Notes: generated by a model not told the origin, from the sequence alone. A stretch of DNA of 10,694 nucleotides from a virus (IMGVR_UViG_2711768038_000002), one strand, 5' to 3'; counted from the stretch's first letter, positions 1 through 10,694 are shown. Translations and numbers: made by a program.

Positions 1-1158
1 ATGCTCACCGTTAAGCAGATTGAAGCAGCAAAGTCGAAAGAAAAACCATACCGCCTTCTCGATGGTAATGGCCTGTACCTTTATGTCCCTGTATCCGGGA
101 AAAAGGTATGGCAGCTTCGCTACAAGATTGACGGTAAGGAAAAAATACTGACCGTAGGAAAATATCCGCTTATGACTTTGCAGGAGGCAAGGGATAAAGC
201 ATGGACTGCGAGGAAAGACATCTCGGTTGGCATCGATCCGGTAAAGGCGAAAAAGGCTTCGTCTAACAACAATTCATTTAGTGCGATTTACAAGGAATGG
301 TACGAGCACAAGAAGCAAGTCTGGTCAGTAGGCTATGCAACTGAACTTGCCAAAATGTTTGATGACGACATTTTACCCATCATCGGAGGTCTTGAGATTC
401 AGGATATTGAGCCGATGCAACTGCTGGAAGTAATCCGCAGATTTGAAGATCGCGGTGCAATGGAGCGAGCCAACAAAGCCCGCAGAAGATGCGGCGAGGT
501 TTTTCGTTACGCTATTGTCACCGGAAGGGCTAAATATAACCCGGCACCTGACCTTGCAGACGCCATGAAGGGATACCGCAAGAAGAACTTCCCGTTTCTT
601 CCTGCAGACCAGATCCCTGCATTCAACAAAGCACTGGCAACATTTTCAGGAAGTATCGTATCGCTCATTGCGACCAAAGTTTTACGCTACACTGCCCTAA
701 GAACGAAAGAGCTTCGTTCCATGCTATGGAAGAACGTCGATTTTGAAAACAGGATTATCACCATCGACGCCAGTGTGATGAAGGGACGCAAAATTCATGT
801 GGTCCCGATGTCAGACCAGGTGGTTGAACTTCTCACTACGCTAAGCTCAATCACCAAACCAGTATCAGAGTTTGTTTTTGCCGGGCGCAACGATAAGAAG
901 AAGCCAATCTGCGAGAACGCGGTATTGCTTGTGATCAAACAAATCGGCTATGAGGGTCTGGAAAGCGGTCACGGATTCAGGCATGAATTCAGCACGATTA
1001 TGAACGAGCACGAATGGCCCGCTGATGCTATTGAAGTGCAACTGGCACATGCCAACGGCGGTTCTGTGCGTGGAATTTACAACCATGCTCAGTATCTCGA
1101 CAAACGCAGAGAAATGATGCAGTGGTGGGCAGACTGGCTTGATGGGAAGGTTGATTAA
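1..1158 (+). CDS. intS: Tyrosine recombinase / P4-family prophage integrase (IntS-like, argW-targeting type)
   Basis: Uninterrupted 385-aa ORF starting at position 1, stop TAA 1156-1158. C-terminal tyrosine-recombinase signatures are visible (HGFRHEF box with HxxR; GIYNH with the catalytic Tyr candidate). The N-terminus MLTVKQIEAAK...YRLLDGNGLYLYV matches the P4-like integrase arm-binding region. Length and sequence match my recollection of E. coli CPS-53/KplE1 IntS; not verified by search. Confidence 0.9.
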   Translation: MLTVKQIEAAKSKEKPYRLLDGNGLYLYVPVSGKKVWQLRYKIDGKEKILTVGKYPLMTLQEARDKAWTARKDISVGIDPVKAKKASSNNNSFSAIYKEWYEHKKQVWSVGYATELAKMFDDDILPIIGGLEIQDIEPMQLLEVIRRFEDRGAMERANKARRRCGEVFRYAIVTGRAKYNPAPDLADAMKGYRKKNFPFLPADQIPAFNKALATFSGSIVSLIATKVLRYTALRTKELRSMLWKNVDFENRIITIDASVMKGRKIHVVPMSDQVVELLTTLSSITKPVSEFVFAGRNDKKKPICENAVLLVIKQIGYEGLESGHGFRHEFSTIMNEHEWPADAIEVQLAHANGGSVRGIYNHAQYLDKRREMMQWWADWLDGKVD

Positions 1159-1349
1159 AGAACAATAACAGCGCGTTGCAGCAATTACAGGAAACATCTT
1201 GTTACATACTTGGTTTTATGTCACTAACAAACTAGAGAAATTATGCATGAATAGACATATCGATCGTTATTTTTGTTGGTGATATACTTAACTGAATTTT
1301 ATGCACAACCATGTTGCGAATTTACCACATCATTACAAGGCAAACGGAA

Positions 1350-1667
1350 ATGAATAAGGATAAATGCTTAAATATAATTATATTAATAATCATTATAACA
1401 ATAATTGTTATTTCTTTTTATCCTATGTCATCAAGCTCAAAAGGGCATGATACGCAAAGTATTTCAGGTGACAACTTTAAATTAAGATCTTCTTTCTCAA
1501 GAGAATATTCATCATGCATATCAAACCTCAAAATGATAGCGCTAGACTTTGCTGGTCATAACATAGATTTCAACAGCCATAGCCAGTTCATAGCTTCAAG
1601 TGGCGAGGAAAAAATATTAGTAAAATGCACAAAAGATAATAAGTTACTATACATGCAAAATAAATGA
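1350..1667 (+). CDS. Hypothetical small membrane-anchored protein (moron), 105 aa
   Basis: ATG at 1350 with a weak GGA-type RBS; an in-frame ATG at 1311 has no RBS. The N-terminus has a single hydrophobic segment (LNIIILIIIITIIVISFY) followed by a hydrophilic Ser-rich domain. The gene is very AT-rich and is followed immediately by a strong hairpin terminator. No recognisable family. Confidence 0.4.
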   Translation: MNKDKCLNIIILIIIITIIVISFYPMSSSSKGHDTQSISGDNFKLRSSFSREYSSCISNLKMIALDFAGHNIDFNSHSQFIASSGEEKILVKCTKDNKLLYMQNK

Positions 1668-1673
1668 GAATTT

Positions 1674-1700
1674 CCGCACGCTTATCGCGTGCGGTTTTTT
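1674..1700. terminator. Rho-independent terminator between convergent genes (canonical for + strand, weaker for - strand)
   Basis: Perfect 8-bp stem CCGCACGC / GCGTGCGG (1674-1681 and 1687-1694) with loop TTATC, followed on + by TTTTTTATTTTTT. It sits between the stop of the small + ORF (1667) and the stop of the - strand membrane-protein gene (1699-1701). Confidence 0.65.
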
Positions 1701-3066
1701 ATTTTTTAGGTAATATATAGTATATTACCTTATATGAAAAATAGACAAATGATACAGTTATTATATTTTTCAAGAAAATAAATAAAAAGAATTCAAGACT
1801 CTCCCTTGCCATAAAAAATGAAAAAGGCATTGTCATAAGTGCAGCTATTTGTAATACACCAACTCTCCTCATCAATATGATTTTATCAAGAAATCTAAAA
1901 ACAACGCCTGAGATAACATATGAGCACCAGAAAAAATACTTTCCGAAAATAACAAGCGATGACCCAAGCAAAGTTGATGCCATATTCAATCCATTGCTAA
2001 GACCAAGAGCACTCACGGTAAAGTAATATGAGCTATTCATTGTGACAATTGGTTTGTCAGACCATATGAATCTTGGGATAAACCCTGAAAATTGAGTAAA
2101 GAAATAATAAATACCACCAACATTGCGATCATTGCTAAAGTATTTAACAGCTATACTCTGATAATTGATAGGAGATACGCTATCAGCTAAATATCTGACT
2201 ATAATGCCAAAAAGAGAGCCAGACGCTGAAATATCAACATCTGAGTATCTCACTATAGCCATTACACCAATTAGAATTAAGCACACAGAGCCTATGCATA
2301 TTAATTTCAACATGCCAATTAAGCCTCTAGAGTGGCAAATAAGAGCAACAATAAACATTGCCGAAAACATTACATTTCTTGAGCCACCAATAAGTACGTA
2401 ATATGCCATCCCAAATAACAATGACATTATAATTGATTTAACGAATACATACTTATCGTCAGATGTAATTGCATACACTATAACAGCAGAAACAAAAGAT
2501 GACATTATCATTATAATGACACCACTACCAGCATTCCCGCCAAGCTTTAAAGCATAATCATCAGAATTAAAAGATATGCCGTTTATGGCATAAAAAGCCA
2601 TCATCCCAACAAAACTTAAAAACAACGTTGTTCTTACAAATAATTTTGGGCTACCAATAAAATATTTATCAGAAAAAGTTATTTTATTTCTTCCTGCCGC
2701 TGTATGAGAGAATACATAAAACAAAACTATACCAATAAACGACAACGTAGACACATCATTTATATATTGATACGGCATATATTCTGCAGAACTAACTTTT
2801 GCCCCAACTCTAAACGGAAGCGATATATACCCAAAAAAATGAGTAAAAACGAGGAATAACATCCCAACAGATTTGAATGACACGCCATGTTTTTTGAATG
2901 ACACGGCACTTAGATATATTAATATTATGGCATACAACGCAGGTAGCACATAAGTAAAAAATGATTCATAAATATTCATAATATTGTATGTAAAAATGAC
3001 TATTTTTACCCGATCTTTAAAGAAAGTACAGGATGATAGCGCGTTTCTACGCGCCATCATAGTCAC
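1699..3066 (-). CDS. Polytopic inner-membrane protein, putative O-antigen modification enzyme (Wzy-like polymerase candidate); lysogenic-conversion position
   Basis: 455-aa ORF with at least 10 long hydrophobic segments and a roughly 60-aa loop rich in Arg and aromatic residues between TM blocks. Very AT-rich compared with neighbours (by eye). The start ATG (3066-3064) overlaps the tailspike stop TGA (3065-3063) as ATGA; alternative in-frame starts lie near 2979. It occupies the position immediately downstream of the tailspike where P22-like phages carry oac or gtr conversion genes. The family call is inference only. Confidence 0.6.
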
Positions 3067-5246
3067 CTTACAACAAATTTGCCATTGCTAATGTCGTTAA
3101 CTAGTGTTGCCACTATGTTAGCAACATCCTTCGTAGATAGGGTGTTTACGTCTCCACCGCGTAACGCACCGGAATTGGTAAATGGATACTGCTGAGGTTG
3201 TGAGCTATTGGCAAACTGGTTGTTAGCCTCATAACGTTTTGTTGGTACAGGGTTGTACCCAATACTGCCTGTGGTTGTGTCAGGAGCCACGCAGTTCGTA
3301 ATGTTCACTATAGCGGCAGAACCACTACCATTTGTATATATTGGCCTGTTAACTGTCCCGAATGGTTGCACAGCTACCAGTCTGTTAACAATAACACTAT
3401 GTGTGGCTAGTGCCTGTAAATAAGATTCTGCGCTCCCGTTGCACCCCCTCAAGTTCACATTATCAACCTCTATGTGGCGGCAGTTAATGGTGACGATATA
3501 ATGACCATTTTCTGTGTTAGGGTAAGCGCCTACTATGCGAACATTTTTTAATGTTAAATCTGTGGTTGGCACCGCAGCAGGCCCACCGTTGAAAACAAAC
3601 CCTTTTGCACCATTTGCAAGTGCGTGTATCGTAATGCCGTCAAACTCGATGTCGGCAAGATTAGTCGTGGTATTGGCTGAGTTTGCCAAAAAATAAACAG
3701 CCTCAGCAGAGCAACCTGATATCAAGAAGTTAGAAAAACGCATCCTTGTGTTTTCTACCGGATAGAAGCGGCATAACAAACCCTGCGAGCAGTTACGAAT
3801 AACAACGTTATCATAGGATACGTCACTAGCTCCTTCAATTGCGACACCTGCATTCGAACTTTCTACATATAGTCCAGTAACTACTCCATTACGGAAATTC
3901 CCACGAAGCCCGTGGCTTTCACAGTTTTTGATTGTGGCGGCGTTTATGTTAACTCTTGTAATAGCTGTCCCTTCCCCGCTTCCGTTCACAAGGTCGTCTG
4001 ATTGAACACGCAAACCGTTACCGCCAGAGGTATTAATGCTCACATCGTGAATCATAAGATTAAGAGTACGGTTTGGCCGGTGTGATGAGAAGAACAAAGA
4101 TGAGGCCCAAGTGTTTCTGCAACGGATATGATGGACGTGCGCCTCTGTAGGGTCATTGACAATGATCGCCATGCCAGTGCGGTTGCTGCCATCTGGATCT
4201 TGAATTTTCCCACGACCACAATCATGTGAGTACAGATTATCGGCAAGAACCCATCTCCCATAATCCATCGTTACGTTGCTATTCCATGCCCCCTGCAATT
4301 CACACCCTGAAAGCTCAAGTGTACCTGCAGATTGCATGGCCAAACCAACCCCTGGGTCAAATGAAGCATTCTGCCGATAAAAATCAAACAAGAAATTACC
4401 GACAATGCGTATATCATATGGAGTATAGTCAAACTCTTGATTTGATTCGTTCCATGTCCGTGGGGATCTGAGCCATAATTGTCTGGAATCTACCGTCACT
4501 TTTGGCAATAACGGCTTTATGAGGATGTCTCCCTGAATATTAAATATACCTTCTACAGTTACGGGAGAGTAAGCGATCCCGATATTTCCAGATAGTGGAA
4601 GTAGTCTACTAAGTTGAGCGTCATTTTGTGCAATTTTCCAACCAGAATTAACCTCATTAAAAAATGATATTGGGTAAAGTTCAATATTATCATTAATTAC
4701 AGTTGAGTCATAACTGGTAATTGTCAATGGTGATGATAATGGTGTGCTCATCATCATAAGGGCGCCATCAAGCCTAACGAATCTTACACCTTCGGGAATT
4801 AAGTCTCCTATTTTTGCATCAATTCCAATTTTATTAGGATAAACCTCACCACCTAAAAATCCATTCATTCCTCGAAGCCAAGATAGATTTAACATGACTG
4901 ATAACTGATCTGGATCGTACTTCAGCACATTAGGGAAATAGAACTGCTGTGATCCATATGCATCGTACACAGCCATAGAATGCCCTTGTACAGTAACGAA
5001 CTTAGCAATCTGTCCGTTATATACAGGGTAGCCAGCAGCGTTAATAATTATTGGTTGCGAAACGGGAATGTGAGAGCCGTCTTCGTTCTCCACATAAACC
5101 TGAATTTGGTTTTCAGGATTTACCGGGTCCGTGTCAATTTTACCGATATAAATTTTGCCATTGGCTACGGCTTTAAAAGAACGAGCCATAGTGAAGAGTT
5201 GCGAAGGCATACTCACTACAACATTGGCATTTATTGAATCTGTCAT
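3063..5246 (-). CDS. P22-family tailspike protein (conserved N-terminal head-binding domain plus divergent beta-helix receptor-binding/depolymerase domain)
   Basis: 727-aa uninterrupted ORF with GGAG 8 nt upstream of ATG 5246-5244. The first ~110 aa ([59 protein letters not shown]...[17 protein letters not shown]...NVLKYDPDQ) match the P22 gp9 / Sf6 / HK620 tailspike head-binding domain as I recall it. The remainder shows repetitive N/G/V-rich beta-helix-like segments. Confidence 0.9.
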
Positions 5247-5304
5247 TTAATTTGCTCCAGATGCAAGGAATCGCCGCAGCATGGCTACGGTGAATTTTGG
5301 GCAT

Positions 5305-5327
5305 AAAAAAACCCAGCCGAAGCTGGG
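5305..5327 (-). terminator. Rho-independent terminator acting on - strand transcripts, upstream of the tailspike gene
   Basis: Stem CCCAGC (5312-5317) / GCTGGG (5322-5327), loop CGAA, flanked on + by a 7-A run (5305-5311), which is a U-tract on the - strand immediately after the hairpin. Confidence 0.55.
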
Positions 5328-5379
5328 TCGTTGCGTTGGTTATCTGTCAGTAGTTATGCACTGGCTGAAGGATTTGTAC

Positions 5380-5409
5380 AAAAAACCACCTGACGGTGGG
5401 TTAATTTTT
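5380..5409 (-). terminator. Second hairpin terminator candidate (mainly - strand; weak on +)
   Basis: Stem CCACC (5386-5390) / GGTGG (5395-5399), loop TGAC, with a 6-A run upstream on + (U-tract on -) and TTAATTTTT downstream on +. Confidence 0.45.
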
Positions 5410-5427
5410 GCATTTACCTGGGCCATA

Positions 5428-5456
5428 TTGACTACTTATAAAATGAGATCAATATT
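5428..5456 (+). promoter_or_regulatory. Candidate sigma70-like promoter for the small basic protein gene
   Basis: TTGACT at 5428-5433, a 17-nt spacer, then AATATT at 5451-5456, about 35 nt upstream of ATG 5493. Pattern match by eye only. Confidence 0.25.
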
Positions 5457-5492
5457 TAATCGCCCAATAACGGGTGTATGTTGAGGTATATC

Positions 5493-5672
5493 ATGGCGAA
5501 AAAACCAGGTGAAAACACAGGAAAAAACGGCGGAATATACCAAGAAGTTGGCCCACGCGGCGGTAAGAAAGACAATTTTGCCACCGTCAAGGACAACGAA
5601 AGGCTTCCACCAACAACAAAGCCAGGTCATGGCTGGGTATTGGATAAGCGAACTCCAGACAGCAAAAAGTAA
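5493..5672 (+). CDS. Hypothetical small basic Lys/Gly-rich protein, 59 aa
   Basis: ATG 5493 is preceded by GAGG (5483-5486) at 6-nt spacing; the upstream in-frame ATG at 5478 lacks an RBS. Stop TAA 5670-5672 is followed by a hairpin terminator. No family recognised. Confidence 0.45.
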   Translation: MAKKPGENTGKNGGIYQEVGPRGGKKDNFATVKDNERLPPTTKPGHGWVLDKRTPDSKK

Positions 5673-5678
5673 TAATCA

Positions 5679-5700
5679 AGCCGGTTCACTCCGGCTTTTT
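5679..5700. terminator. Hairpin terminator shared by the convergent small-protein (+) and zincin-like (-) genes
   Basis: Stem AGCCGG (5679-5684) / CCGGCT (5691-5696), loop TTCACT, followed on + by TTTTT. The stop codon of the - strand gene (5686-5688) lies in the loop. Confidence 0.5.
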
Positions 5701-6051
5701 GATATGTCGCTCGCAGAACTCAACAAGCCTGCTCATTAAGTAGCAGTAAGTCTCGTTGGCTCTTCCTGGTTCAACATCAACACCTACCCTTGAGCAGATA
5801 TCGAATGCCATGTGAGCGCACTCATGGGCAATAGTAGATAGTTTGCCATTGAACACGCCTATCACATGCAAAACACCATTCTCGCTACTCATTGTATGAG
5901 ACGCTCCGTTGGCGTCCGAGTCATGCACGTCAACGCCAAGTTTTTGATGCAGGCGTTGCCATTCTGGAAAGTCTCTACAAAACACAATTGTACCGCTCTC
6001 AAAGAGCGGAACGAGCATCTTTGGTACGTTTCCAATGTTAACTTTTTTCAT
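5686..6051 (-). CDS. Putative zincin-like metallopeptidase (HEXXH motif; ImmA/IrrE- or SprT-like), 121 aa
   Basis: ATG 6051-6049 with AGGA 4 nt upstream. The protein contains AHECAHMAFD (H-E-x-x-H zinc-binding motif) preceded by a LGVDV...NGKLSTIAHE arrangement resembling ImmA/IrrE-family peptidases. The family call is from motif recall, not search. Confidence 0.55.
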   Translation of the reverse strand: MKKVNIGNVPKMLVPLFESGTIVFCRDFPEWQRLHQKLGVDVHDSDANGASHTMSSENGVLHVIGVFNGKLSTIAHECAHMAFDICSRVGVDVEPGRANETYCYLMSRLVEFCERHIKKPE

Positions 6052-6085
6052 GGTATCCTGCGCAAAACTAAGGAGAGTTAATTAT

Positions 6086-6571
6086 ATGAAAAAATCACTG
6101 TTAATTATCCCGCTTCTGCTGGCTGGGTGCGCAAAAGTAAGCGACTATCAGGCAAGTTGCGAGCAACGCTATCCAAAGCTTAGCGATATGGCTAATTGCC
6201 TTGATGCCAGCTTGAAGAACGACTCTCGCATGGCATCAGCACCAACACCTAAGCTTTATGTCCTTGCTGCGAAGATGCTCGGGCAAGGTGTCGATGAAGG
6301 CAAGATAAGTGACACACAGGCAAGACTTGAACTTCAGAATCTTTATGTTCAATTACAAAGCCAAGAACAAGCACAACAAATAGCACAAAGCCAAGCATTC
6401 CAGCAGGCTTTATTGAATTATCAGGCTGTAAACACAATGCAAGCGATCGAGCAAAAAGCGCGCCAGCCTGTTATAACTCAACCTTACCCAACACGCGTTG
6501 ACACATATACAAACTGCAATTCAGGATTTGGAAACACGGTAACATGCAACAGTAGCAGTAATATAAGATAG
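6086..6571 (+). CDS. Lipoprotein (signal peptide with lipobox LLAG-C), Gln-rich central region; candidate superinfection-exclusion or moron product
   Basis: ATG 6086 is preceded by AGGAGAG (6071-6077). The N-terminus MKKSLLIIPLLLAGCAK is a classical lipoprotein signal peptide with lipobox. The mature part has a Gln/Ala-rich, probably helical segment and several Cys. The ORF-track start at 6035 lacks an RBS and would bury the signal peptide. Confidence 0.7.
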   Translation: MKKSLLIIPLLLAGCAKVSDYQASCEQRYPKLSDMANCLDASLKNDSRMASAPTPKLYVLAAKMLGQGVDEGKISDTQARLELQNLYVQLQSQEQAQQIAQSQAFQQALLNYQAVNTMQAIEQKARQPVITQPYPTRVDTYTNCNSGFGNTVTCNSSSNIR

Positions 6572-6584
6572 TTATATCTTATTT

Positions 6585-8432
6585 TTATTGCTGTTCTGCT
6601 GTAATTTGGCTTGAAAGTATAGGGCGTATCGCATTTGCAGCATTATTTAGCGCTCTTTCATAGGCTGGTGTTCCTGCTTTGGTGTTTGCCAAACGTAAGA
6701 GAGCATTCCTTGCTGCTTTTGACTCATACAAGCGCATCATTGCACCGAAACCAGCCTCAAGCCCCATTGATACGCCAAGAGTCGCAGTTGCGCCAATCGT
6801 CCTTATCCTGTTGGCTTGCGATTGCCCCGTCTGAGTTACTACATTTGCGGTGTCTGACCTTGCTGTTTGCTGTAGAACTTCATGAAGAGAATCAAGCTCT
6901 TTCATGTGCTTTCCAGAAAAAATAGTGTTGTAAATTTCACCGCCTGACTGAGATTTCAGCTTATTAACTTCAGTGATGAACTTGGCTGGAGAGTCACCGG
7001 CCTTTTCCGCTATTTTGCTGACGTAAGCTGCACGCATAGCATCTTTCCCTTTATCATCCAATGCGCTCCAGATTCGTTTCACGTCAGATGGTTTTCTGCT
7101 TAATACAACGGTATTTATAAGTTCAGGACTGGCTTCACTGCTTGCCTTGTTGAGCTTGTTAGCAATGTTTTTATTAAGCACCTTATTATAAACGTTTGCA
7201 TAATCGGAATTTGCTTTAAGGTATTTTGCTGCGTCTGATGCACCGAGGTTTTTAGCAACTGCGTTACGAAGGTCTTTTGACATTGCATTCTCTACCATAT
7301 TGGTAGCTGCTTTTGCCTGGTTGGGGAAGACCATAGCATCTCCCTGAACATTAGATCTAAATGCTGTTCTGTGCTGACGCAAGAGATCAAACGTAACATC
7401 CAAATCAGTTGCAGGGTTAGCTAATTCTTCACGTAGGTTACGCAAGGATGTAAGCAGGCTTTGATTGGCTGAAGTCCCAAGCCGTTCCTGTCTTGCGATC
7501 GCTGCATTCAGAGCATTCATGGTATTTGTGGTATCAACTGCGGCATTACCCATTTTATTGGTGACGTCATTGATAACAGCGCCAGCAGCATCCTTCCGCC
7601 CCCTTAACGTGGTGGTCAGAGATTTCACCACATCATCAGGGTTGTACTCACCAAAACGGTCAAAATAATTGCTTACCAGCTTACTACGCGTTGCATATTG
7701 CTCCGCTCGCTTTAAGCCTGTCCCGAGCAAAGCCCCCTCGGCATCCTGAGTAAGGCCGCGAGTGAAAGCATTTTTCGGCGGGATAACATCAGATGTCATT
7801 GGTGTCACGCCCATCGATTCTGATGTGGCAATTTTCTTCGCCACTTCTGGCGCAATATCACCTTTTATAGCCGTTATTCCACGCCCTATTCCCTTTGCTG
7901 CTGCGGAAAGAACCCCCTGAGCGGCAAGGTTAACTCCGGCATTTTTGGCTGCATTTTGTGCGAAATCGCCTTTCTGATTTGCGGCCTCTGCCAGTGATCC
8001 AATAGCCATGCTTCCTGCCGTTCCAACGCCTGGAACTAAATACCCGCCAATTGTTTCACCGGCTTGCGCGTAAGGGTCGGTCGGTCGATCTACTGGACGA
8101 TAGACATCGTCCAAAACCTTGGGGCCACCAAGCCCCTGGCTGATTGCATTAATCAGACTTGCGCCACCCTGCAATACGTCAAATGGTATGTTTACCAGAC
8201 CACGACCAGCCTGCTCTGCAATTTGCCCTGCACTTTGCCCGCCTGTGAGCCAATCGCCAGCTTGTTGCATCAATGATGGTTCTTCACGTGCTGGTTCATT
8301 ATTGGCCTGATTAACTGTTTGTTGCTGAACAGCCTGACCAGCAAAATACTCATCAATGGCGGTGCCAATATCTTCCGTGCTCGTACCATCAGGGAAGGTA
8401 AATGTCTTACCGTTTGCAGTTACTTTCATCAT
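6585..8432 (-). CDS. P22 gp16-like ejection (DNA-transfer) protein
   Basis: 615-aa ORF. The N-terminus [33 protein letters not shown] matches my recollection of P22 gp16, and the size is close to P22 gp16 (about 609 aa). Start ATG 8432-8430 overlaps the stop TGA 8431-8429 of the upstream gp20-like gene as ATGA. Confidence 0.85.
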
Positions 8433-9896
8433 TCCACCGTAAATTGAATTCCTGATTTTGAGGTATATGATCCGGATTGACTCTGCTGCTGTTGGGTATT
8501 TGCCGGTTGTTGGCTATTGCTCTGTTGTTGACTATTTGCAGCACTTGAAACCACCAAAGCATCATAAACGCGACCAGACTGACCACGTAATGAGTTATAT
8601 TGGCCCTGCATTTTTCGCATTTTTGTTTCAGTAGCAGCCTTGGAATCACCGGGCTGAGGCAGGTACATTTTGGAATACTCCTGCATCTCTGGCAGAGTAA
8701 TTGCTGCACCTGTTTCTGGGCGCAAAATTGCATACAAGGCGTCTCTCGCATTTACCATATATTGCTGCTCCGCTGGTGATAGGCTTAAATTTGCAATAGT
8801 CCCATCACCAAGAGAGCGATTTATTAATGCAACTCGCTTAGGGTCAATGCTTTTACTAAGCTGATTCATTGAGTCCATTGAATCTTTTAATCGCAAAGCA
8901 AATCCTGCCGCCTTCTTGGAACCCTCATTAGCCTTATCTATGATGCTTTGCGCTTGTGGCAAGCTAATTGGTTTAATGCCATCACCAGATATAGGTTGGT
9001 TTAGTTTTCCGGCTTCCTCGCTGCCATCGGTGTAATACTTAGTTACCGAGCCATCAGGATTGGTTTCAACCTTAAGTAATTTCTTAGCATTGGGATTAAT
9101 TCCCGCCGCTGCCGCAAATGCCGCTGCACCATTTGGATCCGCCTTTAACATTTGCGCGTACTGATTGTAATTCTGCATTGCAGCTGTTGGTGCATATGCT
9201 GACGTTAACGCATTTGCTCGGCTAATATCCTGCCCTCTCGCCTGAAGCGCCTCGCCAGCCTGATTGCTGCGAATCGTCTCTGCCAACTCGCCACGCTCAA
9301 TATCCCGACCAGCCATCTTGTCCTGAACATTGAAGTAATCAATCGGACCAAGAGCAGCCATTCCAAGGTGATCAACAAACTCACCAAATCCTGAAGGGTT
9401 CTGCTGATACATCTGAGCAACGCTGTTAGGGTCAACACCGACGCGAGTCAGTTCCTTGGCGTTGTTTTGCAGCCATGATTGCATTGCTTCTGGAGACGAT
9501 GACGCAAGGCGTGCGCCAGCCGCTAAGGTGCCGATAGAATTACGCTGGTCTTCATCAATGAATCCCATGCCTTTACGAACGGATTCAATCTGGTCTGGAT
9601 ATTGAGTAGCCAACTGACGCAAAGCACCGCGATCACCAGACGCATAAGCATTAGCGTACGCCTGCTGAAATTCTTTCTGCCGCTGAGCCTGCTTTTCCTG
9701 CTGAACCCCCCCCCGCAATACCTGAAAGGCCTTGCAAAGCAGTCAGCCCAACATTGTTAGCGCCTGAACGCTCAATATCATTGTTCTGCCTGATAAGCTG
9801 AAGCGTATTGCCGATGTCATTTACGCTCGGAGCGTTTGAGTTGACGCCGCCGATACCAGCCAACAATCCGCCGTTTGTTCCTTGCCAAGTAGCCAT
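8429..9896 (-). pseudogene. P22 gp20-like ejection protein gene interrupted by a frameshift in a homopolymeric tract
   Basis: Two overlapping - strand ORFs in different frames: 9896-9651 ([10 protein letters not shown]..., 81 aa, ATG with a GGGG RBS) and 9718-8429 (429 aa, opening on a TTG codon). They meet at a run of 9 C on + (9706-9714), which is 9 G on the coding strand. Removing one G gives a continuous reading ...[13 protein letters not shown]... of about 489 aa, comparable to P22 gp20. Confidence 0.75.
9706..9714. repeat. Homopolymeric C9 tract (G9 on the - coding strand) at the gp20-like frameshift site
   Basis: Direct count in the sequence: ctgaa ccccccccc gcaata. Confidence 0.9.
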
Positions 9897-9905
9897 GATT
9901 ACCCC

Positions 9906-10184
9906 TTAAAACAACGAGCCAAGCAATCCGATACCAGCACCAATGCCAGCGCCCCAAGGCGTTGATGTTCCCAAAAGGCTGGCAAGACCTGCACCGGCAA
10001 TCGCACCAGACGTGCCGCCGCTAATTGCAGTCTGAAGACTTGATGGTTTATTGGCATTTGCAGCGGCAAGAGCTGCGCTTTGCTGTGCAATGCTGCTCAT
10101 GTTGTTGGCGTACGTCTGCCCGGCGTTTGCCTGACCTTGCAGAGCACCAAGCCCAACGTTTGCCAGATTGTTGTAATTGCTCAT
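9906..10184 (-). CDS. Small Ala/Gly/Asn-rich protein with C-terminal Gly-rich hydrophobic segment; positional equivalent of ejection protein gp7 (possibly 5'-truncated)
   Basis: ATG 10184-10182 (the ORF track extends to a GTG at 10208). Stop TAA 9908-9906 lies 9 nt before the gp20-like start and overlaps its RBS. At 92 aa it is much shorter than P22 gp7 as I recall it (about 229 aa). An in-frame stop lies at 10226-10224, and upstream of it the late operon is absent. Confidence 0.5.
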   Translation of the reverse strand: MSNYNNLANVGLGALQGQANAGQTYANNMSSIAQQSAALAAANANKPSSLQTAISGGTSGAIAGAGLASLLGTSTPWGAGIGAGIGLLGSLF

Positions 10185-10268
10185 CTGGTTTGATAACAAT
10201 CCTCGCACTCGCGGGGATTTCTTTTATCTGAACTCGCTACGGCGGGTTTTGTTTTATGGAGATGATAA

Positions 10269-10436
10269 ATGCACTTCCGAGTCACAGGTGAATGGAATGG
10301 AGAGCCATTTGACAGGGTTATCGAAGCAGAGGACATCAACGACTGCTATAACCACTGGATGATATGGGCGCAGATAGCACATGCAGACGTAACCAATATT
10401 CGAATTGAAGAACTGAAAGAACACCAAGCCGCCTGA
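10269..10436 (+). CDS. Hypothetical small protein, 55 aa
   Basis: ATG 10269 with GGAG (10258-10261) upstream; sequence MHFRVTGEWNGEPFDRVIEAEDINDCYNHWMIWAQIAHADVTNIRIEELKEHQAA. The stop TGA 10434-10436 sits in the loop of a strong terminator hairpin. It falls below the ORF-track size cut-off and has no recognised family. Confidence 0.4.
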   Translation: MHFRVTGEWNGEPFDRVIEAEDINDCYNHWMIWAQIAHADVTNIRIEELKEHQAA

Positions 10437-10448
10437 TGGCGGTTTTTT
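10429..10448 (+). terminator. Rho-independent terminator
   Basis: Stem CCGCC (10429-10433) / GGCGG (10438-10442), loop TGAT, followed by TTTTTT (10443-10448). Confidence 0.65.
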
Positions 10449-10458
10449 ATTACCTGAT

Positions 10459-10474
10459 TTGCAGGTTCGATTCC
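10459..10474 (+). other. 16-nt segment identical to the T-arm region of tRNA-Arg (argW): candidate att core or recombination scar
   Basis: TTGCAGGTTCGATTCC matches tRNA-Arg(CCU) ...AATTGCAGGTTCGATTCCTGCAGGGGACACCA, with the tRNA sequence recalled from memory. Identity stops on both sides; the 3' T-stem strand and acceptor end are absent, so this is not a tRNA gene. It lies between the terminator and the excisionase gene. Confidence 0.5.
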
Positions 10475-10493
10475 CTATTCGGAGATAGCACTC

Positions 10494-10694
10494 ATGCAAC
10501 ACGAACTACAACCTGATTCACTGGTTGATTTGAAATTCATCATGGCTGATACTGGCTTCGGTAAAACCTTCATCTATGACCGGATTAAGTCCGGCGACCT
10601 GCCAAAAGCCAAAGTTATCCACGGTCGAGCAAGATGGTTATATCGTGACCATTGTGAATTCAAAAATAAGCTCTTAAGCCGCGCCAATGGGTAA
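10494..10694 (+). CDS. torI: Excisionase / recombination directionality factor, AlpA-family winged-helix (TorI-like)
   Basis: 66-aa ORF with GGAGA (10481-10485) upstream of ATG 10494 and stop TAA at 10692-10694. The central FIMADTGFGKTFIYDRIKSGDLPKAKVIHGRARWLYRD fits the AlpA/Xis DNA-binding pattern. Length and sequence match my recollection of KplE1 TorI; not verified. Confidence 0.8.
   Translation: MQHELQPDSLVDLKFIMADTGFGKTFIYDRIKSGDLPKAKVIHGRARWLYRDHCEFKNKLLSRANG

Follow-up and report, generated by a model that had tools for sequence, protein, structure and literature searches.

The prophages described at the argW tRNA gene of Escherichia coli share a recombination module of the integrase IntS, the recombination directionality factor (RDF) TorI and the sites attL and attR, which is highly conserved and common to KplE1, HK620, Sf6, CUS-3 and many other argW prophages, with attP lying between the RDF and int genes (PMC2951348, PMC3509656, PMC8787464). 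The module was earlier described by Panis and colleagues, and KplE1 is reported to excise in vivo (PMC2951348, PMC3509656). Here we analyze a 10,694-nucleotide stretch of viral DNA (IMGVR_UViG_2711768038_000002; its whole length is the window below) whose two ends are those of KplE1 and whose interior is that of a different phage. We consider it very probable that this DNA makes up the body of a cryptic (defective) prophage inserted at argW, a tRNA gene of E. coli, and is the remnant of a Lederbergvirus. As a system, the element is an uncharacterised, newly found case of a well-known type: a defective Lederbergvirus prophage with a KplE1-type recombination module. A map of the window, built from six-frame open reading frames (ORFs), composition and family searches (Pfam, PHROG and NCBIfam), places the following features at its ends and around the site where it was shortened:

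1 to 1158, plus strand: intS, intact, a tyrosine integrase of the KplE1/Sf6/HK620 type, 385 aa (Pfam Arm-DNA-bind_3, Phage_int_M, Phage_integrase)
3063 to 5246, minus strand: tailspike, 727 aa, with a P22-type head-binding domain (PF09008, E 4e-65, residues 4-114) and a distinct receptor-binding domain
6585 to 8432, minus strand: gp16-family DNA ejection (transfer) protein, intact, 615 aa (precomputed PF26808 Phage_P22_gp16)
8429 to 9896, minus strand: gp20-family ejection gene, a pseudogene split into two ORFs by a +1 frameshift (PF16928 Inj_translocase)
9906 to 10197, minus strand: 3' fragment of a gp7-family ejection gene, about the C-terminal 97 codons, with the 5' part deleted (phrog_598, profile positions 134-232 of 240)
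10193 to 10197, no strand: deletion junction with the 5-bp microhomology ATAAC (from parental sequences on both sides)
10269 to 10436, plus strand: 55-aa ORF, the last early-left operon gene in relatives (phrog_676, E 5e-39; annotated in ECCWS199 just upstream of torI)
10426 to 10445: terminator-like hairpin after the 55-aa ORF (terminator scan)
10494 to 10694, plus strand: torI, intact, RDF (excisionase) and TorR inhibitor, 66 aa (phrog_66 excisionase)

All 10,694 nt of the window are 100% identical to a stretch of a 470 kb E. coli contig (CXWZ01000004.1 of GCA_001268525.1; L008, the source contig). Contigs with the entire window were retrieved from public assemblies by exact lookup of the tailspike protein, and E. 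coli is the label on the proteins of the window's cluster; a literature search found no mention of the assembly accessions. The window opens with the start codon of intS and closes with the stop codon of torI, and in the source contig it is followed outward by argW, yfdC, mlaA, yfdF and fadL on the int side and by dsdC, dsdX and dsdA on the torI side. This position between argW-yfdC and dsdC is the KplE1 locus. The 16-nt core CTGCAGGGGACACCAT, which is the core published for KplE1 (PMC2951348), is duplicated around the element, with 10,943 bp from core to core; both copies lie outside the window, one of them in the argW 3' end, 176 nt ahead of the first window position, and the other 73 nt after the last. 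No tRNA genes were found in the window, and an Rfam scan of its whole length returned no families.

The host flanks bear directly on whether the window could be an uninterrupted part of an unremarkable, complete P22-like prophage. Between int and the ejection genes it carries what the complete phages Sf6 and HK620 carry, as this possibility would have it; however, torI lies 297 nt past the truncated gp7 fragment, with attR and dsdC immediately after it, and the genes for coat, portal, terminase, lysis, Q, O/P, cI and N are all missing. This reading is refuted by what flanks the element in the source contig, and we assign it a vanishingly small probability. The preliminary description of this DNA had itself named the scenario of head or early genes flanking the window; since the flanks are host genes on both sides (argW, yfdC, mlaA and fadL; dsdC, dsdX and dsdA), that scenario is false.

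The same description had recognized the outermost genes as the IntS/TorI pair, and this is borne out at the protein level: IntS is identical to K-12 IntS in 382 of 385 residues and to Sf6 gp16 in 379 of 385, while TorI is identical in all 66 residues to both K-12 TorI and Sf6 gp18. In the source contig the attL region matches K-12 at 232 of 236 nt and the attR region at 99 of 100 nt, i.e. 98-99% over the attachment-site arms. The intS gene begins 161 nt past argW on the same strand and reads away from attL, so that its promoter would overlap attL, and torI is the final gene ahead of attR, leaving the int and RDF genes at opposite ends of the prophage. Thus, the element has the IntS-type integrase, the TorI-type RDF and the integration at the argW 3' end with a duplicated core that characterize the KplE1-type module. 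It further resembles KplE1 (CPS-53) in its argW-dsdC locus, in its size (10.9 kb against 10.2 kb) and in being a deletion remnant that lacks the immunity region. The interiors differ completely: KplE1 carries gtrABS (yfdGHI), the tail-fibre(-assembly) remnants tfaS/yfdK and the early genes yfdM-T, whereas the element carries a wholly unrelated set comprising a WzyE-family polymerase, a P22-type tailspike and ejection genes. Accordingly, K-12 CPS-53/KplE1 DNA matches only positions 1-1151 (96.5%) and 10444-10694 (98.4%) of the window. The preliminary description was correct in placing gtr genes and tail-fibre remnants inside KplE1, and none of that interior is found here; KplE1 and the element come from different phages via different deletions. 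As the element and KplE1 have practically the same recombination module, and KplE1 excises in vivo, the element should still be excisable by IntS together with TorI.

The interior had been taken for the distal late region of a P22/Sf6/HK620-like phage, and the families of the tailspike (PF09008), gp16 (PF26808), gp20 (PF16928) and gp7 (phrog_598) agree with this. The tailspike has the P22 head-binding domain typical of Lederbergvirus prophages, with PF09008 and the N-termini of the Sf6 and P22 structures in the PDB as matches. PDB matches to tailspikes of the Sf6, P22 and HK620 types are limited to residues 1-119, and residues 139-705 are covered by the phrog_12242 tail protein. All three ejection families (gp7, gp20 and gp16) are represented, with gp7 cut to its C-terminal third and gp20 frameshifted. 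The best phage matches of the interior are to Sf6, HK620 and newer Lederbergvirus isolates, and they are piecewise. Those to Sf6 comprise int, the head-binding domain, gp20/gp7 and the xis region. Those to HK620 comprise int (95.7%), the head-binding domain through hkcD and hkcC (95.7%) and the xis region (99%); here window positions 4903-6075 align at 95.7% identity with HK620 33649-34821, a segment that contains hkcC and the HkcD feature. The gene order (int, conversion slot, tailspike, accessory genes, gp16, gp20 and gp7, with the xis end opposite) is likewise that of Sf6 and HK620, both of which have attP between xis and int, int genes 95.7-96.3% identical and xis regions 98-99% identical to those of the element, the head-binding domain and hkcC/hkcD region being 95.7% identical to HK620. 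The element differs from both in lacking about 30 kb and in having its own tailspike receptor-binding domain and its own conversion gene. P22-type coat, scaffold, portal, terminase, lysis, replication and immunity modules are all absent from it; it is the leftover of a P22-like temperate podovirus and not a functional member of the group.

The site of the loss can be read to the base. Whole-window comparison with K-12 CPS-53, Sf6 and HK620, which had been proposed as a way to map breakpoints, gave the two K-12 limits above and, with further relatives included, the junction at 10193-10197. The match to longer relatives (the 90-1 argW prophage, the longer prophage L007 and Sf6 gene 11) ends at 10197 within the gp7-like gene. 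From 10193 onward the window matches the part of the early-left region nearest xis, as found in ECCWS199 and in the Sf6 interval flanked by genes 19 and 20. The left parents read ...GGTTTGATAAC up to the break and CAAGACTG beyond it, the right parents read ...GGTGAATAAC before it and AATCCTCGC from it onward, and the window reads ...GGTTTGATAACAATCCTCGC across it. In Sf6 coordinates the junction links 9961 to 18871, with 18872-39043 and 1-9960 missing, so about 30.1 kb of the 39-kb genome is gone. The genes lost are the rest of gp7, gp14, gp26, gp10, gp4, coat, scaffold, portal, terminase, lysis and Q, together with nin, O/P, cro/cI, N and most early-left genes. A 5-bp microhomology at such a junction is typical of illegitimate recombination; no IS (insertion sequence) ends or extra att-like repeats were found at the junction, where a repeat search gave only short, chance-level repeats. 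The exact junction supports that part of the preliminary description which proposed that deletion had shrunk a P22-like prophage. To the right of the junction and upstream of the 55-aa ORF are two terminator-like hairpins on the plus strand (10198-10219 and 10230-10249), both kept in the parental early-left sequence, and the right-hand end point of the deletion abuts the base of the first.

The junction occurs also in the contigs L004, L006 and L008 and in the Logan contigs L009 and L010, i.e. in identical form in three or more NCBI assemblies and in several Logan runs that were assembled independently, on contigs of 267-470 kb. A mis-join or collapse in a draft genome could be suspected from its absence from all complete E. 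coli genomes searched and from the break of the L009 and L010 contigs about 80 nt past it, at 10275. However, the join shares only 5 bp, too short for assembler collapse, and we reject an assembly artefact because the same junction recurs in independent assemblies; its probability is very low.

Several points nonetheless weigh against a remnant left by a deletion and still able to excise. The junction is not contiguous in any of 5,426 complete E. coli genomes searched, the single complete-genome record with more than 80% coverage, LR-31, having a different two-piece arrangement. An exact 44-nt junction sequence gave no matches among the GTDB species-representative genomes, a result of little weight with one genome per species. 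The assemblies with the remnant may all be short-read, and no long-read confirmation was seen. No closely matching full-length parent with both sides of the junction was recovered: the left side is supplied by 90-1, L007 and Sf6 and the right side by ECCWS199 and Sf6. Since the two parental sides come from different relatives, removal of about 30 kb in one deletion event would be the most economical reading, short of proof. With regard to excision, competence is extrapolated solely from identity to KplE1, pL went with the deletion, and a sigma-70 scan of 9800-10694 found no promoter-like site upstream of torI.

The anatomy suggests the following origin. A temperate podovirus of the Sf6/HK620-like group (Lederbergvirus) would have integrated via IntS at the 16-nt core at the argW 3' end; as attP in this group lies between xis and int, integration would leave intS next to attL and torI next to attR. 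The junction sequence shows the deletion that followed, most economically one illegitimate recombination at the 5-bp microhomology that removed about 30 kb. The lost segment starts inside the gp7-like gene, takes in the genes for head, terminase, lysis, late control, replication and immunity together with most early-left genes, and stops a little upstream of the last early-left ORF. The remnant keeps intS and torI with both att sites; its other contents are the conversion slot, the tailspike, three accessory ORFs, two ejection genes and a third of another. Since int and xis are at opposite ends of the prophage, any internal deletion leaves a shell of int, cargo and xis; the resemblance to KplE1 would then come from a recombination module common to many mosaic argW phages, combined with internal deletions that spare both ends.

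Copies of the remnant (L004, L006, L008, L009 and L010) differ from the window at 0-4 positions, and the host flanks of the assemblies that bear it are 99.96-100% identical. Most of the loci examined have this remnant form, and two (L005 and L007) have longer prophages at the same locus with identical tailspike and wzy; these keep gp7, gp14, gp26, gp10 and gp4, and L005 also the coat gene. The +1 frameshift of the gp20 gene sits in a run of nine G (C9 on the plus strand, 9705-9713), and with a single G taken out a reading frame of 488 aa is restored, whose alignment with Sf6 gp12 starts at residue 1. L004 and L006 have G8 and L009 has G11, both in frame, and the window, L008 and L010 have the frameshifting G9, making the run a homopolymer hot spot among otherwise almost identical copies; Sf6 has AGGGGTGT at this site, with no homopolymer run. 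L004 has a further nonsense change in gp20 at window position 8488. In L006 (GCA_903981285.1) an IS with an rve transposase breaks intS after window nt 240, and the flank beyond it is rearranged, with several IS elements. Within the remnant clade wzy shows one synonymous change. We infer that the remnant is inherited clonally and decaying, and that it is incapable of making virions.

Other argW elements differ in length from intS start to torI stop: 9,966 bp in K-12 (L011), 10,694 bp in the window, 16,175 bp in ECCWS199 (L002), 21,240 bp with IS5 and IS911 in 90-1 (L012), and 27,546 bp with IS1 in O104:H4 FDAARGOS_349 (L018). The defective prophages of ECCWS199, 90-1 and O104:H4 share with the element the argW locus, the end genes and P22-like late genes beside int, and 90-1 also carries its wzy-tailspike block at 98-99% identity. 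They differ in their deletions, which in ECCWS199 joins gp20 to N, in 90-1 is associated with IS5 and joins the portal gene to the early-left region, and in O104:H4 is associated with IS1 and removes the central region; these are independent decay events. Every chromosomal argW prophage that we examined is an independent deletion remnant with its own size and junction, in a sample ascertained through int/torI similarity and thus uninformative on how often the ends themselves get lost. IS elements or truncated genes stand at the break in three of the four elements compared with the window (ECCWS199, 90-1, O104:H4, K-12), and the argW element of the O104:H4 outbreak lineage is without the lysis-to-immunity region.

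The other proposal of the preliminary description was a chassis, here taken as a dedicated one made up of intS, torI and the att sites, which would stay at argW and exchange its cargo with incoming phages, so that the interior would be an acquired cassette. Relative to the window, L005 and L007 show 32 and 28 single-nucleotide polymorphisms (SNPs), respectively, all within intS nt 30-783, followed by one SNP up to about position 5283; SNP density thus falls from about 4% (1-783) to about 0.02% (784-5283). This pattern marks a recent homologous recombination breakpoint inside intS and, with the SNPs limited to this segment, indicates that the block of the int 3' end, orf118 (the small ORF described below), wzy and tailspike recently moved onto different int 5'/attL backgrounds. 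The block is also joined to different sets of ejection genes across relatives; in L005 they differ although its host flank is 99.97% identical, and the gene between int and the tailspike differs from relative to relative. These observations could be recruited in favor of a chassis. However, the interior is collinear with Sf6 and HK620 and ends in a truncated gene at a microhomology junction, which is the signature of a deletion and unlike that of a cassette insertion. Moreover, exchange at conserved flanks is ordinary lambdoid/P22-like mosaicism, possible during phage growth with no need of a resident chassis, and the conserved module has already been described as a shared phage module (PMC2951348, PMC3509656). 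Hence, what stands of the proposal is the published shared module and the mosaicism recorded by the intS breakpoint; this breakpoint is ordinary homologous mosaicism at conserved flanks and no evidence for a dedicated cargo-swapping device, which we regard as improbable.

Nor does the gene content point to retention of a host-beneficial subset, as had also been suggested for the deletion remnant. The genes retained are those contiguous with attL/int and with torI/attR. More than half of the retained content consists of virion genes that are useless without a head, including a truncated gp7, a frameshifted gp20 and a tailspike with no virion. The remnant clade has gathered too few mutations for a test of selection on the genes it kept, and a host-beneficial subset is therefore unsupported. 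The small size and the intact int, RDF and att sites might alternatively recall a phage satellite, like the phage-inducible chromosomal islands (PICIs) or P4, which keeps int and xis and parasitizes a P22-like helper. Yet no ORF has a replication, primase, packaging-redirection or regulatory domain in searches of Pfam, PHROG, NCBIfam and PADLOC, and what the element does carry are common structural genes of the helper type, of which two are broken. In P22-like phages the small-terminase gene contains the pac site, and the terminase region is absent here. With no replication or packaging genes we reject a satellite, which is about as improbable as a complete prophage, and retain the deletion remnant of a Lederbergvirus.

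The slot between int and tailspike, and the region between tailspike and gp16, hold the remaining features of the window:

1350 to 1667, plus strand: ORFan small protein, 105 aa (118 aa from an ATG at 1311; orf118), with one hydrophobic segment, convergent with wzy
1674 to 1694, no strand: terminator-like GC-rich hairpin with a T-run, separating the small ORF from wzy (8 base pairs in the terminator scan, 7 being G-C)
1699 to 3060, minus strand: wzy, homologue of WzyE-family oligosaccharide (repeat-unit) polymerases, 453 aa, in the conversion slot between int and tailspike (PF06899 WzyE)
5493 to 5672, plus strand: 59-aa accessory ORF, equivalent of HK620 HkcD and P22 orf59a (phrog_3202, E 7e-31)
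5686 to 6051, minus strand: 121-aa accessory protein, homologue of HK620 hkcC (phrog_1365, unknown function, E 2e-39; HK620 alignment)
6086 to 6571, plus strand: predicted lipoprotein, 161 aa, lipobox LLAGC (phrog_6067, unknown function, E 3e-109)

The wzy product matches nearly the entire PF06899 profile (E 1.6e-17, 64 bits against a cut-off of 25), whereas it scores 70 bits against a cut-off of 510 with the NCBIfam equivalog of the enterobacterial common antigen (ECA) polymerase. It is a distant member of the WzyE family for which the name ECA polymerase is inappropriate. The gene has a GC content of 30-34% and encodes a multi-pass membrane protein with at least 10 hydrophobic segments; relative to the 90-1 copy its ratio of nonsynonymous to synonymous polymorphism (pN/pS) is 0.16, and the value for the gp16-family protein, 98.3% identical to its 90-1 copy, is 0.04. 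The tailspike gene ends 2 nt before the wzy start. Relatives of Wzy are few in number. A 58%-identical relative directly follows a tailspike with a 70%-identical receptor-binding domain in a metagenome contig (L013), and a 56%-identical one directly follows the tail-fibre gene of the temperate Enterobacter siphophage CobraSix (L020, 18833-22304); the CobraSix tail fibre is not a homologue of the window tailspike, and no receptor-binding domain common to the two was found. More distant relatives, 34-38% identical, occur in Vibrionaceae, the 38%-identical one of V. cholerae lying in a wza-wzb-wzc polysaccharide cluster. A WzyE-family gene thus stands immediately downstream of a receptor-binding protein gene in unrelated phage backbones (the window, L013 and CobraSix), and the two may form a recurring conversion/host-range pairing.

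The slot itself holds a different gene in other relatives: oac in Sf6, an acyltransferase gene in O104:H4, gtrABS in K-12 and a DUF6395 protein gene in ECCWS199, with the WzyE-family polymerase in the window and 90-1. In HK620 the slot gene encodes a putative O-antigen-polymerase-like protein on the opposite strand with a weak PF01901 match, and similarity between this HK620 'O-antigen modification protein' and the window Wzy is undetectable. The convergent 105-aa ORF has no match in Pfam, PHROG, NCBIfam or PADLOC, and its only database relatives are its own copies. It lies in DNA of 30% GC and is intact in every relative with wzy; its status as a real gene is uncertain. In every context examined a small membrane ORF lies convergent with wzy and just downstream of it (L013 3603-3740, minus strand; L019 1366-1521, minus strand; L020 6252-6493, minus strand), these ORFs not being detectably homologous to each other.

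Phages epsilon15 (Salmonella) and D3 (Pseudomonas) convert serotype by polymerase swap, with small inhibitors of the host polymerase. The element resembles them in having a phage-borne Wzy-type gene beside a receptor-binding protein gene, and the adjacent small membrane ORF could parallel their inhibitors; it differs in that its polymerase belongs to the WzyE (ECA-type) Pfam family and in that no inhibitor homologue was identified. The convergent small membrane ORFs as a set could be a parallel to the D3 and epsilon15 inhibitors, or nothing (D3 and the iap of epsilon15 are cited in PMC8787464). With a phage-encoded Wzy-type repeat-unit polymerase at hand, as PF06899 and the homologue in the Vibrio cluster indicate, serotype conversion of the epsilon15/D3 type by Wzy would be a reasonable hypothesis by analogy. 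One can go further and read the int 3' end, small ORF, wzy and tailspike as a functional, self-contained polymerase-swap/host-range cassette that passes between argW prophages through homologous recombination, with exchanges inside intS and in conserved sequence upstream of the tailspike, and with the O-antigen change and resistance to the cognate tailspike fixed clonally; this we regard as a tentative proposal that is more probably wrong than right. As to expression, a sigma-70 promoter scan of 1100-6700 found 18 sites against 18.3 expected, i.e. chance level; with counts at chance there and none in 9800-10694, the scans are uninformative on expression of wzy and torI in the remnant. The late promoter and Q are gone with the deletion.

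Among the accessory proteins, the hkcC homologue carries an HEXXH motif in its translation (HECAH, in IAHECAHMAF), which hints at a small zinc metallopeptidase-like accessory protein. The 161-aa lipoprotein, whose homologue in the O104:H4 prophage is annotated 'lipoprotein', sits in the sieA position of P22-like phages, where the related prophage L007 has SieA, and is a candidate superinfection-exclusion moron. The accessory ORFs, this lipoprotein included, matched no PADLOC defence model and no NCBIfam family.

The significance of the element lies mostly in annotation. We advise that it be annotated as a defective Lederbergvirus prophage and its wzy kept apart from the ECA polymerase name. 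It also offers a clean illustration of how a KplE1-like '10-kb int...xis' element arises, the content of the int-cargo-xis shell being set by the parent phage and the end point of the deletion. If the cassette proposal holds, a wzy gene directly after the receptor-binding gene would be a recurring conversion design across podoviruses and siphoviruses such as CobraSix. The tailspike-linked WzyE-family polymerase could change the O antigen of its host lineage, and this is the one lead worth experiment.

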